50,820 nucleotides of DNA, taken from positions 1 to 50,820 of the forward strand of contig JAEOTS010000001.1 of the NCBI GenBank assembly GCA_016839745.1, written 5' to 3'. The number at the start of each line of letters is the position of its first letter. Positions within the stretch are counted from its first letter, which is position 1. Both the position numbers and the translations under genes were made by a program. Below are positions 4,462-9,412 of this stretch, one piece after another. The stretch comes from Promethearchaeota archaeon (GTDB lineage Archaea > Asgardarchaeota > Lokiarchaeia > Sigyniarchaeales > SOKP01). The notes beneath the pieces are model-generated. The model had not been told where the DNA came from, made no database searches, and saw only the letters and a list, made by a program, of their open reading frames with translations.

Positions 4462-5916
4462 TTATTGGATATCTAACTTCGAGAGCATTTCTACAGCAGC
4501 TTCTCGAACATCAGGATCTCTATCCACTTGAAGAATTTTTAATAATTCAGCTATTTCGCTATACTCAAAATTACGTAGAGCTTTTATTAGATAGAGTTTT
4601 ACGATCCAATCTTCATCTTTAACGAGTTCTTTCAATTCATCGAAAATTTTAGGTCCATTAATTGCGCTTAGTATCTTTATGGCGTAGGTTTTAGAATCTC
4701 GATTATCACTCTTTAAATCTTCTATAAGTTGATCTACGATTAAAGTTTTATAATCATTAGTGAGCATCTTATACATCCTAAAAAATAATGTGGGGGGATA
4801 GTGCTCAAAAACAGTTTGCTTAGGGATAGTATCAAGTTCAACGCGATCCTCTATCGTGTCTTCTAGGACTTTTAATTCCACAATTAAATCGCTCAGTTGT
4901 CTATTAGCAGTTTCGATCTTCTGCAACTTAAGATTTAGGATATTTAATTCTTCGTCTTTTTCTAAAGCTTTCTGTCGAAGTTCATCCAATTTTTGATCTT
5001 CAATTTTAGCTTTTTCTTCTAGTTCATTTTCGATGTTTTGGTCCCGCTGTTTTAGATTTTTAATGATTGTTATATTAGTATTTATTATATTTTTCAAATC
5101 ATTATTTTCTACTTCTAAGTCGAATAGTTTTTGATTTATTTCTTCGTAGTCCGTACCTTTTTCAACTTCCATAATTTGTTCTTCTTGAAGTTTTACGGTT
5201 TCTTCTAATTTTTTCTGGAGGTAATTGACTTTTTCCTGATATTGATCGTTGTCAAAAGTTAACTGATCTAGAATTTTATTTACTTCATTTATTTCGTGTA
5301 AATATTGAGTTTTTAGAGCTTCGTTCTCCTGTTCTATTCTTTTTAATTCTTCGATTTCATGCCTCGAAGATTCGATTTGGACGCGATTGATACCGTTTTC
5401 TTCCGTTAGTTTAATAATTAATTTTTTTGCATCTATTAGTTCAGGATTATCTTCTCCAACTTTGATCGTTGTTTCGTCTTTTTTGCTCTGCAACTCTATT
5501 ATTGCGTTAGTTAAATCTTCAACTTGTTTTTTATACAATTCGTTTTCTTCAGTTAATTGCACGATTTCTTTGTTGGCATAAATTAATTCTTCGTTTTCTC
5601 CCTCGAATTTTTGTACATTTTCCAATTCTGTAGATATATCGGCGATAGCTTGTTGGAGAATCTCAATATCCTTATCCTTCTTAATTATATCTTGACGCTG
5701 TTCCGATACTAAATCTTTTAATACTGTAATGTCTTTGGGGATGTTATTTTCAGAAATTTTTGATTTTTGGTTTTGGATAATTTGTTTTTGTTCGCTCACG
5801 GTAAAATTAAGACGCTGTACTTCCTCCTTCAAATACCTAATCATGGTTTCTAAATCGGAGTGCGCTTGGTTCGCAGAATCAACTGAATCTATTAAATCTT
5901 TTAATTCTTTACTCAT
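4462..5916 (-). CDS. Long coiled-coil protein with C-terminal HEAT repeats
   Basis: About 350 aa of E/K/Q/L heptad pattern; C-terminal DEDWIVKLYLIKAL and DRDPDVREAAVEML HEAT-like repeats. Confidence 0.8.
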   Translation of the reverse strand: MSKELKDLIDSVDSANQAHSDLETMIRYLKEEVQRLNFTVSEQKQIIQNQKSKISENNIPKDITVLKDLVSEQRQDIIKKDKDIEILQQAIADISTELENVQKFEGENEELIYANKEIVQLTEENELYKKQVEDLTNAIIELQSKKDETTIKVGEDNPELIDAKKLIIKLTEENGINRVQIESSRHEIEELKRIEQENEALKTQYLHEINEVNKILDQLTFDNDQYQEKVNYLQKKLEETVKLQEEQIMEVEKGTDYEEINQKLFDLEVENNDLKNIINTNITIIKNLKQRDQNIENELEEKAKIEDQKLDELRQKALEKDEELNILNLKLQKIETANRQLSDLIVELKVLEDTIEDRVELDTIPKQTVFEHYPPTLFFRMYKMLTNDYKTLIVDQLIEDLKSDNRDSKTYAIKILSAINGPKIFDELKELVKDEDWIVKLYLIKALRNFEYSEIAELLKILQVDRDPDVREAAVEMLSKLDIQ

Positions 5917-6020
5917 TTTAAAAGCAAAATAATGATCTAATTTGAATTATTAATAAAGCCATTGGCTAATAAATCTTTTGATCGTAATCTTTAAAAAACA
6001 TTCGATATTTGTATTTCAAT

Positions 6021-6030
6021 TAATATATAA
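6021..6030 (+). promoter_or_regulatory. TATA-box-like element, conserved in both repeat units (second copy 6285-6294)
   Basis: taatatataa is identical in both copies, about 65 nt upstream of each ATG. Confidence 0.45.
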
Positions 6031-6094
6031 TGGATTTTAAAAAAAAATAGGTTAAATAAAATTACATAGTCGATCAAAGTGGGGGTTTATCTTT

Positions 6095-6241
6095 ATGGAG
6101 GATGAAAATTTATGTAATGAATATGAAGGTAGAGAAGAATTTGACGATGATGATGAGTGGGAAGAAGATGACGAAGATTACGACGACGACGAAGATGGTG
6201 AAGACTATAATGATGGTGATTGGGACGAAGAAGACGATTAA
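6095..6241 (+). CDS. 48-aa highly acidic micro-protein, copy 1
   Basis: MEDENLCNEYEGREEFDDDDEWEEDDEDYDDDEDGEDYNDGDWDEEDD*; GGGGG SD-like run upstream; paralog next door. Confidence 0.75.
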   Translation: MEDENLCNEYEGREEFDDDDEWEEDDEDYDDDEDGEDYNDGDWDEEDD

Positions 6242-6356
6242 CTGATCGTAATCTTTAAAAAACATTAGTGATTAATATTTCAAATAATATATAATGGATT
6301 TAAAAAAAAAAAGTTAAATTAAATTACATAAATAATCAAATCAGGGGTTGGTTATT

Positions 6357-6521
6357 ATGGAGGACAAAAATTTATTTAATAAATTTAGAGATAGAGAAGA
6401 TCTAGATTTAGGATATGATTATGACGATGATGATGATTGGGACGATGAATTCGAAGATTACGATGATGATGATGACTTTGACGACTATAATGATGGAGAA
6501 TGGGATGAAGAAGACTTTTAA
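6357..6521 (+). CDS. 54-aa highly acidic micro-protein, copy 2
   Basis: MEDKNLFNKFRDREDLDLGYDYDDDDDWDDEFEDYDDDDDFDDYNDGEWDEEDF*; AGGGG upstream; length differs from copy 1 by a multiple of three. Confidence 0.75.
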   Translation: MEDKNLFNKFRDREDLDLGYDYDDDDDWDDEFEDYDDDDDFDDYNDGEWDEEDF

Positions 6522-6601
6522 CTCATATCTTTAACTTTTCTAGCTTAAAAAAAGAAAAATATATTATTAAAAATTGATAAAAAAGAAGTAAGTTCGAGAG
6601 A

Positions 6602-7078
6602 TTAAATAATTTCAATTTTTTTTATTTTATCTCCTTTTCTTATAGCATCCACTACAACTTGATCTGCGGGACCTATAACTTCTCCAAAGATTGTGTGTTT
6701 GTTATTCAGGTGCGGAGTAGGTACGTGAGTTATGAAAAACTGTGAACCATTCGTGCTTGGTCCAGCGTTTGCCATTGCTAAAATACCTGGTTTGTTGAAG
6801 ACTTTTCCTGACTTAAACTCGTCTGCATAAGGATACGATATCTCCCGGCCCTGAAATGGAAATGAGTGTACTCCAACAGCTTTAGGGCCTCCCGTACCAT
6901 TACCAAGAGGGTCGCCTCCTTGAATCATAAAGTCTGCTATAACTCGATGGAAAACAATCCCGTCGTAAAAACCTTTTTTTGCTAAAAACAAAAAGCTCGA
7001 AACTGTTAATGGCGCTTCGTTGTCAAATAAATTAAGATTGATGTCTCCTTTAGTAGTTATAATTTTTACTTTTGTCAT
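6602..7078 (-). CDS. Cyclophilin-type peptidyl-prolyl cis-trans isomerase
   Basis: FHRVIADFMIQGGDPLGNGTGGP, LAMANAGPSTNGSQFFIT and HTIFGEV. Confidence 0.97.
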   Translation of the reverse strand: MTKVKIITTKGDINLNLFDNEAPLTVSSFLFLAKKGFYDGIVFHRVIADFMIQGGDPLGNGTGGPKAVGVHSFPFQGREISYPYADEFKSGKVFNKPGILAMANAGPSTNGSQFFITHVPTPHLNNKHTIFGEVIGPADQVVVDAIRKGDKIKKIEII

Positions 7079-7243: not shown

Positions 7244-9412
7244 ATGGTCAAAAATAACGATATATCTTTCTTTTTTAACCCGAAAAGCATTGCAGTCATT
7301 GGAGCGAGTGGAACCCCAGGTAAAGTGGGATATAATGTGTTAAAAAACATTATTGACTCGAAATATTCTGGTAAATTATACCCTATAAATCCTAAAGCGA
7401 ATGAGATACTAGGAAATAAAGCTTACAAGAGTGTTTTTGATGTTCAAGAAAATATTGAAATAGCGATAGTTGTCATTCCAGGGAAATTTGTAAATCAAAT
7501 TGCAGATGAGTGTGGAAAAAAAGGTATAAAAGGATTGGTCGTCATTACTGCCGGGTTTAAAGAAATCGGTGGGGAAGGCATTAAGCGAGAACAAGAACTA
7601 ATTAAGATTGCTAAGAAGCATGGAATGAGAATTATAGGTCCAAACTGCCTTGGATTCATCGGTATTAATTATAATGGTTCTTTTGCTGCTAACACACCTA
7701 AAAAAGGAGAAATTGCGATGATATCTCAATCAGGTGCTATGTTAACCGGAATGATGGATTATTCTATGGACCAAGCGTTTGGTTTCTCGTGTAATATTAG
7801 TTTAGGTAATAAAGCCGATCTGGACGAAGTTGATTTTATTGAATATTTAGCTGAAGATCCAAACACGAAAGTCATTTTATGCTATTTAGAGAGCATTGAA
7901 AATGGAAATAAGTTTTTAGAAGTAGTCTCAAAAGTTGCACGAAAGAAACCAATAATTATCTTAAAATCGGGTGTCAGTGCTGCTGGAGCTAGAGCGGCTT
8001 CTAGTCATACGGGGGCTTTAGCTGGTTTGGATATTGCGTACGAGTTAGCTTTCGATAAATGTGGAGTTTTAAGAGCAAATACGATAGCAGACCTATTCGA
8101 TTATGGAGAAATTTTCTTATTCCAACCGATTCCTAAGATGAATTCTTTTGCAATAGTTACCAATGCTGGTGGTCCTGGTATCGTTGCTACAGATGCATTT
8201 GAGCGAGAAGGGTTAAAATTTGCTCAATTTTCTGAATCAATATTGCATAAGCTGCGCGAAAACTTACCAGCCGAAGCGGCAATTTTTAATCCAATTGATA
8301 TCATAGGTGACGCTTCTCCTGTTAGATATGAATTCACCATAAAGACGATATTTGGTTTAAATAATGAAGGAAGTCATGATGATATAGACGAGGACGATAT
8401 TACAACTTACGGAGCTCTTATTATTATGAGTCCACAAGCTCAAACGCAGCCAACTGATGTAGCTAAACTAATTCATAGATTATCATCTAAATCGTTATTA
8501 GATAAACCAATCGTTACAGCACTCGTAGGTGGAGTTTCAATGGTTGAAGCTACGAATTATTTAAAACAGAATCACATTCCTTGTTATCGATTTCCCGAAA
8601 GAGCTGCAGAAACTCTTAAAGCAATGGTTAAATATAATGATTTCCTCAATAGAGAGTCGTACGATAAGATAGAAATTCCAAAATTTAAAGTTAAAAAAGA
8701 AAGAGTTAGAGAAATTTTCGAAAACGCTAGAAAAGAAGGGAGAACAGTATTGCTAAGTCATGAAACGAGTGAAATTTTCGAAAATTATGGTATAATATCT
8801 CCTAAATCTCGATTAGCCAGAACACCGACCGAAGCAAGTAAATTACAAAATGAAATAGGTAAATCCGTTTTAAAGATTGTCAGTCCTCAAATAATCCATA
8901 AAACAGATGTAGGGGGTATTTTTTTAAACATAGAATCAGAACAGGACGCGTTTGAGGCGTATGTGCAAATTCTTGGCAATGTTAAAAGATTTGGTCCTCA
9001 AAACGCTCGTATTTTTGGCGTAGAAGTTCAAGAAATGATTGATTTTAAGAAACAAACAAAAGTAAACGAAATAATTATTGGTATGTCTAAAGATCCGCAG
9101 TTTGGTCCGTTAATTATGTTTGGAACAGGTGGTATTTATGCAAATTTCATGAAAGACGTATCTTTTGCGTTATCGTATAAATTTTCAAAAGATAGTGCAA
9201 AGAAATTAATCGAAAATACCAAGATATTTAGCCTTTTACAAGGCGTTAGAGGCGAACCTTCGTCAGATATTGACGCAATTATAGACGTTCTGTTAAGACT
9301 TTCTCAACTAGTAAACGATTTTCCCGAGATTGTCGAATTAGATATAAATCCTCTTCTATCGTTTGTAAAGGGATACAGTGCAGTAGATATAAAGATAACA
9401 ATATCACGATAA
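7244..9412 (+). CDS. ADP-forming acetate/acyl-CoA ligase, fused alpha and beta subunits
   Basis: CoA-binding PKSIAVIGAS, GPNCLG, phospho-His SHTGALAG, TNAGGPG, ATP-grasp KIVSPQIIHKTDVGG, DPQFGP and ELDINPL. Confidence 0.93.
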   Translation: MVKNNDISFFFNPKSIAVIGASGTPGKVGYNVLKNIIDSKYSGKLYPINPKANEILGNKAYKSVFDVQENIEIAIVVIPGKFVNQIADECGKKGIKGLVVITAGFKEIGGEGIKREQELIKIAKKHGMRIIGPNCLGFIGINYNGSFAANTPKKGEIAMISQSGAMLTGMMDYSMDQAFGFSCNISLGNKADLDEVDFIEYLAEDPNTKVILCYLESIENGNKFLEVVSKVARKKPIIILKSGVSAAGARAASSHTGALAGLDIAYELAFDKCGVLRANTIADLFDYGEIFLFQPIPKMNSFAIVTNAGGPGIVATDAFEREGLKFAQFSESILHKLRENLPAEAAIFNPIDIIGDASPVRYEFTIKTIFGLNNEGSHDDIDEDDITTYGALIIMSPQAQTQPTDVAKLIHRLSSKSLLDKPIVTALVGGVSMVEATNYLKQNHIPCYRFPERAAETLKAMVKYNDFLNRESYDKIEIPKFKVKKERVREIFENARKEGRTVLLSHETSEIFENYGIISPKSRLARTPTEASKLQNEIGKSVLKIVSPQIIHKTDVGGIFLNIESEQDAFEAYVQILGNVKRFGPQNARIFGVEVQEMIDFKKQTKVNEIIIGMSKDPQFGPLIMFGTGGIYANFMKDVSFALSYKFSKDSAKKLIENTKIFSLLQGVRGEPSSDIDAIIDVLLRLSQLVNDFPEIVELDINPLLSFVKGYSAVDIKITISR

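Follow-up and report, generated by a model that had tools for sequence, protein, structure and literature searches.

A tandem pair of hyper-acidic microprotein genes represents an undescribed, lineage-restricted family in Lokiarchaeia

The window analyzed here, a stretch of DNA of 50,820 nt (positions 1 to 50,820 of contig JAEOTS010000001.1, assembly GCA_016839745.1, Promethearchaeota archaeon), carries two short open reading frames (ORFs) in tandem which code for 48 and 54 residues and consist largely of Asp and Glu. This locus raises the question of whether frames of such low complexity are genes at all and, if so, what their products might do. Microproteins, and motif-based interactions mediated by disordered proteins, are seen as a eukaryotic speciality and are, to our knowledge, almost unexplored in archaea. 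The two ORFs were found to belong to an undescribed, lineage-restricted family of hyper-acidic, predicted disordered proteins with aromatic residues, which we refer to as the NDGxW family. The gene has been overlooked by annotation and is nearly missing from billion-entry protein databases, yet it is under clear purifying selection.

Two tandem genes and the selection on their products

Copy 1 (ORF1; 6095..6241, + strand) codes for 48 residues, of which 32 are Asp or Glu (67%), with a net charge of -31. Copy 2 (ORF2; 6357..6521, + strand) codes for 54 residues when counted from its ATG, of which 30 are Asp or Glu (56%), with a net charge of -26. They are tandem paralogs with 63% amino acid sequence identity. 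The core by which the family is recognized reads D-Y-N-D-G-D-W-D in copy 1 (6203..6226, + strand; residues 37-44, with Trp43 encoded at 6221-6223) and D-Y-N-D-G-E-W-D in copy 2 (6483..6506, + strand; residues 43-50, including Trp49). A degenerate DNA pattern for this core matches at 6209-6228 and 6489-6508, respectively.

The duplicated unit is the whole gene including its upstream region, and extends beyond the ORF. The 122 nt located 5' of ORF1 are repeated 5' of ORF2 with 82% sequence identity (E = 6.5e-28), and this duplicated stretch holds GATCGTAATCTTTAAAAAAC together with a G-rich Shine-Dalgarno-like site about 8-9 nt before each ATG. As read from the sequence, copy 1 has a box resembling a transcription factor B recognition element (BRE) and TATA box at 5980..5998 (+ strand; GATCGTAATC and TTTAAAAAA), about 97-115 nt 5' of the ATG. 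The same 19-mer (GATCGTAATCTTTAAAAAA) recurs as the box of copy 2 at 6244..6262 (+ strand), where it begins 3 nt past the copy 1 stop codon. The Shine-Dalgarno-like sites are GGGGGT for copy 1 (6081..6086, + strand; read from the sequence) and GGGGT for copy 2 (6344..6348, + strand), both 8 nt 5' of the ATG. A T-rich stretch with CTTTT.. motifs which lies 3' of copy 2 (6522..6560, + strand) might be an archaeal oligo-T terminator.

A reading of this locus made from the letters alone (the sequence-only reading) had described two unannotated ORFs of this size, more than half acidic and each with its own duplicated TATA-like and Shine-Dalgarno-like elements. The composition and the duplicated elements agree with the values given above. 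All four motifs listed in that reading (MEDxNL, DDDD[ED]W, EDYDDD, and DYNDG[DE]WDEED) are present in frame in both copies, and neither exact protein is contained in a 15-billion-protein collection.

Judged by comparison with related genomes, both ORFs are genuine protein-coding genes. As circularity had to be avoided, the locus was gathered without regard to the motif, by synteny, using the N-terminus of the neighboring coiled-coil/HEAT protein as the probe. Of the 42 genomes of the GTDB genus, nearly all encode an ortholog of the HEAT protein, and an acidic ORF is found between the HEAT protein and the cyclophilin gene in 33 of the 41 other genomes; the HEAT protein itself shows only 36-82% sequence identity across these genomes. 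The resulting full-length family alignment comprises 31 sequences (both window ORFs plus 29 orthologs or paralogs). A profile of the two copies alone retrieved syntenic ORFs from relatives with E-values as good as 1e-25 and 5e-18. It scored in only 10 of 36 genus genomes and missed most of the distant members, so that such counts understate the distribution, and searches by synteny and DNA pattern were required. The degenerate DNA pattern for the core matched genomes of 18 archaeal species, which are titled Promethearchaeota or Promethearchaeia (Lokiarchaeota-type Asgard).

The invariant Gly of the core is encoded by GGA, GGT, GGC, and GGG in 16, 6, 6, and 3 sequences, and both synonymous codons are in use for each of the core residues Asn, Tyr, and Asp. 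Nucleotide diversity in the core is 0.046, 0.019, and 0.354 at codon positions 1, 2, and 3, and the ratio of nonsynonymous to synonymous differences (pN/pS) is 0.15-0.70 across ten pairs. The synonymous codon variation and the low pN/pS values indicate that selection acts on the protein.

These data bear on the possibility that the two ORFs do not code for proteins. They would then be chance frames in GAT/GAC-rich DNA or a C/D-box small RNA (sRNA), or the true gene would lie on the opposite strand, in the form of the antisense hydrophobic ORF (6110-6265, minus strand). In this frame, GAY repeats naturally lack stop codons, and TGATGA and CTGA strings cause weak Rfam matches to C/D-box sRNAs (15-21 bits, E 0.3-0.9). 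Against this, the Rfam scores are far below the gathering thresholds of 38-45 bits, variation within the acidic frame falls mostly on third codon positions and pN/pS stays below 1, the start codon with its Shine-Dalgarno site is conserved, as is the stop position, and specific residues are conserved beyond the expectation from composition. We thus consider this possibility extremely improbable. The sub-threshold sRNA matches originate from GATGATGA and CTGA strings within acidic codon runs (6143-6194 and 6390-6483, + strand), and such strings are likely to lead to spurious sRNA predictions in Asp-rich genes of AT-rich archaea.

The signals for expression are also conserved. The box core (..GTAA..TTTAAAAA..) is kept upstream of 18 orthologs, distant ones included, and the copy 2 box is kept upstream of the copy 2 orthologs of two further species; agreement with the archaeal BRE/TATA consensus suggests that the box serves as a promoter. 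The Shine-Dalgarno sites of the orthologs are of the GGAGG, GGTGAG, GGGAG, or GGGG type, with spacing as in copy 1. The position of initiation is conserved; most genomes have ATG there, two lineages have GTG, and three have ATA. Where ATA or GTG replaces ATG (L011/L012/L124, which are copy 1 orthologs, and L121; L111 and L098/L123), the Shine-Dalgarno spacing is normal and the remaining ORF and the core motif are intact. ATA may be a weak start codon in some of these orthologs.

A six-frame scan of the whole genome (3.53 Mb, 32% G+C) revealed that its two most acidic 20-residue windows (17/20 and 16/20) are those of the two ORFs. These ORFs also contain the only NDGxW[DE] sites of the genome and are its only short acidic ORFs which carry Trp. 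Because they combine the most acidic windows with the sole NDGxW[DE] sites, expectations from a chance origin are far exceeded. When 1.84 billion representative proteins were searched in full with HMMER, 4 matches were returned, all of them family members; one relative has been deposited under the name of a hypothetical protein from "Candidatus Lokiarchaeota archaeon." Literature searches returned no description of the NDGxW family.

The genome has one other acidic segment with Trp, which forms the tail (..DDDEEAEDDDEWAKFDGF) at the C-terminus of a protein with about 255 residues (genome G000, contig C17, about 7344-8120, + strand). By eye, the middle of this protein looks like Spt5/NusG (NGN and KOW). 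It has acidic extensions at both termini, which is unusual for archaeal Spt5.

The conserved core and the comparison with known acidic proteins

In the 31 aligned sequences, the core is D-[DN]-Y-N-D-G-E-W-D. Its Asn, Gly, and Trp are invariant (31/31), as is Met1 of the protein. Two Asp (30/31 each), the Glu (27/31), and the Tyr (27/30) are nearly so. Two upstream columns are aromatic in 24/26 and 25/29 sequences, so that there are four conserved aromatic columns in all, and an N-terminal module M-x-[ND]-E-x-L...[KR]-[DE] is conserved. In the flanks, Asp and Glu are freely exchanged (e.g., 14/14), whereas the core Asp is almost never replaced by Glu. The fact that the core residues are exact while Asp and Glu are exchanged in the flanks points to a specific recognition element, beyond mere composition. 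We define the family as ORFs of 45-80 residues with at least 44% Asp/Glu, an N-terminal M-x-[ND]-E-x-L, the upstream aromatic columns, and the core [DN]-Y-N-D-G-[ED]-W-D; both window ORFs have all of these features. The net charge within the family is -16 to -51, Pro is almost absent, and there are 0-1 Cys, 1-5 Trp, and several Tyr/Phe; the two window proteins contain just 1-4 Lys/Arg. Many members stop right after the core and the C-termini are variable; the longer forms all end in an aromatic residue (17/17).

The family members are predicted to be intrinsically disordered. AlphaFold2, when provided with the 31-sequence alignment, assigned no secondary structure (mean pLDDT 60, pTM 0.11). 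For a homolog, the ESM Atlas model has a pLDDT of 0.26, at which the associated structure matches are meaningless, and sub-threshold ESM Atlas clusters of "highly acidic protein" (0.78-0.82) were discarded. A search for longer, fused forms returned none, which is weak evidence that the protein stands alone.

The sequence-only reading had proposed that the peptides are Sem1-like or actin-regulator-like. DSS1 serves the proteasome lid, TREX-2, and BRCA2 as a small acidic adaptor; it is disordered, and its Trp and Phe residues anchor in basic grooves. The NDGxW proteins resemble Sem1/DSS1 in size (50-90 residues), in disorder, in being free-standing, and in having acidic tracts with conserved Trp/Phe; they differ by their N-D-G-x-W core and by having no C-terminal helix and no detectable sequence relation. 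The DSS1_SEM1 profile (PF05160; curated cut-off 32.2 bits) had no match at E<=10, either by hmmscan of both proteins or in a six-frame search of the whole genome. The 31-sequence family profile had 0 matches at E<=10 among 177,635 distinct PDB sequences, DSS1/Sem1 chains included, and a C-terminal amphipathic helix of the Sem1 type was not predicted by AlphaFold2. In a search for the PCI-domain complexes that partner with Sem1 (Rpn3/Rpn7, Thp1/Sac3), a hidden Markov model of the PCI domain produced only marginal matches on the genome (<=25 bits, in large proteins), and bacterial control genomes match as well. In a Pfam scan of both proteins at E<=10, the only match was a meaningless one to Importin_rep_6 (E = 9.4).

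Regarding actin regulators, the likeness to the "A" motif of the WASP VCA region and to the W-acidic motif bound by kinesin light chain lies in a single Trp amid Asp/Glu (..EWDEED). Those are short linear motifs in large proteins, where the Trp docks, and they act together with WH2/C elements. In this comparison, which draws on general knowledge of these motifs and on reading the sequence, only the acidic tract resembles the VCA region: the whole protein is an acidic tract with a short N-terminal module, and neither a WH2 domain (Pfam) nor a connector (C) element was found. Very divergent but true homology to Sem1/DSS1 or to the acidic tail of WASP-family proteins would thus have only compositional likeness in its favor, namely acidic runs with Trp, and restriction to one Lokiarchaeal family is not how an ancestral eukaryotic signature protein would be distributed; we regard such homology as exceedingly unlikely.

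Of the earlier interpretation, the part that stands is that these are genuine, conserved protein-coding genes, and the homologies to Sem1/DSS1 and to WASP are not supported. A lack of homologs or of conserved aromatic positions had been named as grounds for giving it up; homologs exist and the aromatic columns are conserved. An acidic disordered segment which binds a partner by aromatic anchors is the most plausible candidate mode of action.

Two further groups of acidic proteins were compared. Acidic disordered regions of histone chaperones share with the family repeated [DE]n-[FYW] units, disorder, and a polyanionic character. These regions sit in large folded chaperones and recognize eukaryotic H2A-H2B, whereas nothing at hand ties the NDGxW family to histones; we know of no described archaeal counterpart of such regions. 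LysW/ArgW is likewise an acidic archaeal protein (about 54 residues) with a Trp near its acidic C-terminus. LysW is a Zn-ribbon protein with four Cys/His and a conserved C-terminal EDWGE that ends in Glu. Membership in this group was rejected: the NDGxW proteins have no Zn-ribbon (0-1 Cys) and no EDWGE terminus, their C-termini are variable, and no genes of lysine or arginine biosynthesis are nearby.

Distribution, gene loss, and duplication

To map the distribution, 400 genomes of the phylum Promethearchaeota were searched with a 20-nt degenerate pattern for N-D-G-[DE]-W-D-[DE]. Matches were obtained in 29 genomes, all within one GTDB family and including 24 of the 41 other home-genus genomes and one genome in each of four sister genera. 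The core pattern was found in none of the 266 genomes outside that family, and a reversed pattern used as control had zero matches in all genomes. About 38 further members were found on metagenome contigs. A viral collection yielded 50 pattern matches, all of them chance matches inside unrelated larger proteins, and no viral family member. A recurrent viral protein family of 350-390 residues with FNDG[DE]WD[DE] (loci L133, L135, L145-L147, L150-L154, and others) carries this motif in a non-acidic, apparently folded context and is unrelated to the microproteins.

In the main subfamily, the gene order is HEAT/coiled-coil protein (divergent), microprotein, cyclophilin (convergent), and ADP-forming acetyl-CoA synthetase; it holds throughout the genus and in genus g19. 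In the window, the coiled-coil/HEAT protein (484 residues, net charge -40) is encoded at 4462..5916 (minus strand) and has a C-terminal HEAT_2 domain (Pfam E = 6.8e-11). The single-domain cyclophilin (158 residues, pI about 9; Pfam Pro_isomerase, E = 1.6e-43) is encoded at 6602..7078 (minus strand). A role as leader peptide or upstream ORF is excluded because no same-strand gene follows, the next gene being convergent.

In eight genomes of the genus, the two neighbors are separated by only 140-200 bp, without an ORF. Their HEAT protein is about 62% identical to that of the window in seven of them and more divergent (46%) in the eighth. For five of the eight (92-100% complete), the core motif was found nowhere in the genome. 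The gene has thus been lost in these genomes, probably on at least two occasions. The restriction to one family, together with dispensability in a subclade, indicates a lineage-specific accessory rather than machinery ancestral to eukaryotes.

Some divergent members occur in other contexts. One (L108) adjoins the cyclophilin gene with the HEAT gene absent, and another (L116, L211) is located between genes which, judged from translations only, are alpha/beta-hydrolase-like and dipeptidase-like. There is also a second subfamily with a Lys-rich N-terminus (..KDKKKKKFG..; ..NDKDKKKKKFGE.AGDLEEDWED..) followed by an acidic NDGDWD core (L126, 60-254; L209, G036:C42; L219, 317-538, G016:C122; two genus genomes). 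It adjoins MobA-like or old-yellow-enzyme-like genes (again judged from translations only), one copy has its NDGDWDDD unit duplicated in tandem, and it is missing from the genome of the window.

The N-terminus of copy 1 (MEDENLCNEY..) matches the single-copy orthologs (MGDENLCNEY..), by which copy 1 is taken as the ancestral-type paralog. Copy 2 has a different N-terminus (MEDKNLFNKF..), a six-residue insertion, and a C-terminal Phe. Its orthologs are 74-78% identical in two species which also have a tandem pair; on this sequence comparison, copy 2 is the derived paralog, which no fewer than two other species share. A metagenomic lineage has the two copy types in the opposite order.

The same Lokiarchaeal gene block is carried by two contigs labeled "Candidatus Nanopelagicaceae bacterium" (L026, DATKTW010000156.1) and "Candidatus Hermodarchaeota archaeon" (L034, JBHLLO010000057.1). 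They correspond to genomes G011 and G020, which GTDB places in the genus of the window, and the NCBI names look wrong or outdated.

Candidate modes of action and partners

What might such a protein do? We tentatively favor, as possible rather than probable, a specific protein docking in which a disordered polyanionic ligand engages a basic partner through aromatic anchors, most importantly the invariant Trp. The microprotein would act as a free ligand, with its Asp/Glu tracts exerting a long-range pull toward a basic surface and its spaced aromatics (the DDW, DY, and DF positions) serving as anchors. The Asn-Asp-Gly-x-Trp element might form a tight turn that places the Trp into a hydrophobic pocket of the partner, which the Tyr five residues before the Trp would usually enter as well. 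Docking could then clamp, chaperone, or competitively mask the partner. In physical terms, this would work as in Sem1/DSS1 and in the acidic regions with aromatic anchors found in histone chaperones, without homology to either. The tandem duplication may have resulted in two differently tuned versions with a promoter each, copy 1 being shorter and more acidic, and copy 2 being richer in aromatics with a Phe end. The invariant seven-residue element can be mutated in a synthetic peptide. Finding a partner would reveal in what way polyanionic disordered ligands are put to use by Asgard cells.

Several points weigh against such docking. No partner was picked out among the neighbors, which are acidic (the HEAT protein) or mildly basic (the cyclophilin, +3). 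The loss in 8 of 41 genus genomes, with no copy elsewhere in the five that were checked, means that the gene is dispensable. As divergent members occur in unrelated contexts, the neighborhood gives no functional clue. Finally, the core is partly like an EF-hand loop, which fits metal binding.

Metal binding, which takes up the cation-buffer idea of the sequence-only reading, is the main rival. The segment D-D-Y-N-D-G-E-W-D-E-E-D would then act as a degenerate loop of the EF-hand type, with the Asp/Glu tracts as sites of low affinity, and the microprotein would serve to buffer or to sense hard cations (Ca2+, Mg2+, or others). As in EF-hand (DxDxDG) loops and lanthanide-binding tags, Gly is at loop position 6 (31/31), Asp is at positions 1 (26/31), 5 (30/31), and 9 (30/31), and a hydrophobic residue is at position 8. 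N-D-G beside a hydrophobic residue or Trp also occurs in engineered lanthanide-binding tags and in lanmodulin loops, and a charge in the range found for the family must bind cations to some extent. Yet 0/31 members match a PROSITE-type EF-hand pattern, which calls for a loop of 12 residues with ligands at positions 1, 3, 5, and 12, Gly at 6, and an aliphatic residue at 8. Tyr occupies position 3 in 27/31, Trp rather than an aliphatic residue occupies position 8 (31/31), and 12/31 have a non-acidic residue at position 12. Pfam EF-hand profiles had no match at E<=10, and AlphaFold2 predicts no flanking helices, so that there is no helix-loop-helix. Neither the invariance of the Asn at position 4 nor the conservation of the aromatic columns is explained by metal binding, which we consider rather unlikely.

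The microproteins might instead be generic polyanions which mimic nucleic acids or chaperone very basic proteins (Lys-rich tailed histones, ribosomal proteins) and have no dedicated partner. The extreme charge and the predicted disorder suit this idea, and the repeated acidic-then-aromatic units resemble acidic regions of histone chaperones. It would make the invariant N-D-G-x-W core superfluous. Histones and ribosomes are universal in these archaea, whereas the family is limited to one archaeal family and is lost in a subclade. In addition, the locus has no very basic protein among its neighbors. A purely generic role therefore appears doubtful to us.

A bolder version of docking would make the family an independently evolved archaeal counterpart of Sem1/DSS1-like adaptors and of the acidic arms of histone chaperones, which clamps or chaperones a basic partner in Lokiarchaeia (e.g., Lys-rich tailed histones). 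The family would also form a single branch within a broader, undescribed class of acidic, Trp-studded Asgard microproteins. This is speculative, and we would consider it quite improbable.

The neighboring HEAT protein deserves consideration as a dedicated partner. It consists of a coiled coil of about 385 residues followed by the C-terminal HEAT_2 repeats and has orthologs at L025-L074. It is also encoded in the sister genus. Searches of five genomes from two other families of the order did not retrieve it at E<=1e-5, and it seems to be a coiled-coil/HEAT protein specific to this lineage. The microprotein could dock in its HEAT solenoid, as W-acidic cargo motifs do in kinesin light chain. This limited distribution of the HEAT protein is consistent with such a pairing, as is the head-to-head arrangement of the two genes, which is kept in the genus and in genus g19 even though HEAT protein identity drops to 34-36%. 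However, the HEAT protein is strongly acidic (net charge -18 to -45 across orthologs, with the HEAT domain about neutral). It is kept in all eight genomes that are devoid of the microprotein, and no residue separates the two groups. Conversely, family members occur without the HEAT protein, next to the cyclophilin gene alone or in unrelated contexts. We thus judge this partnership to be decidedly unlikely. Because the whole four-gene block is syntenic, the adjacency of the two genes is explained by inheritance alone.

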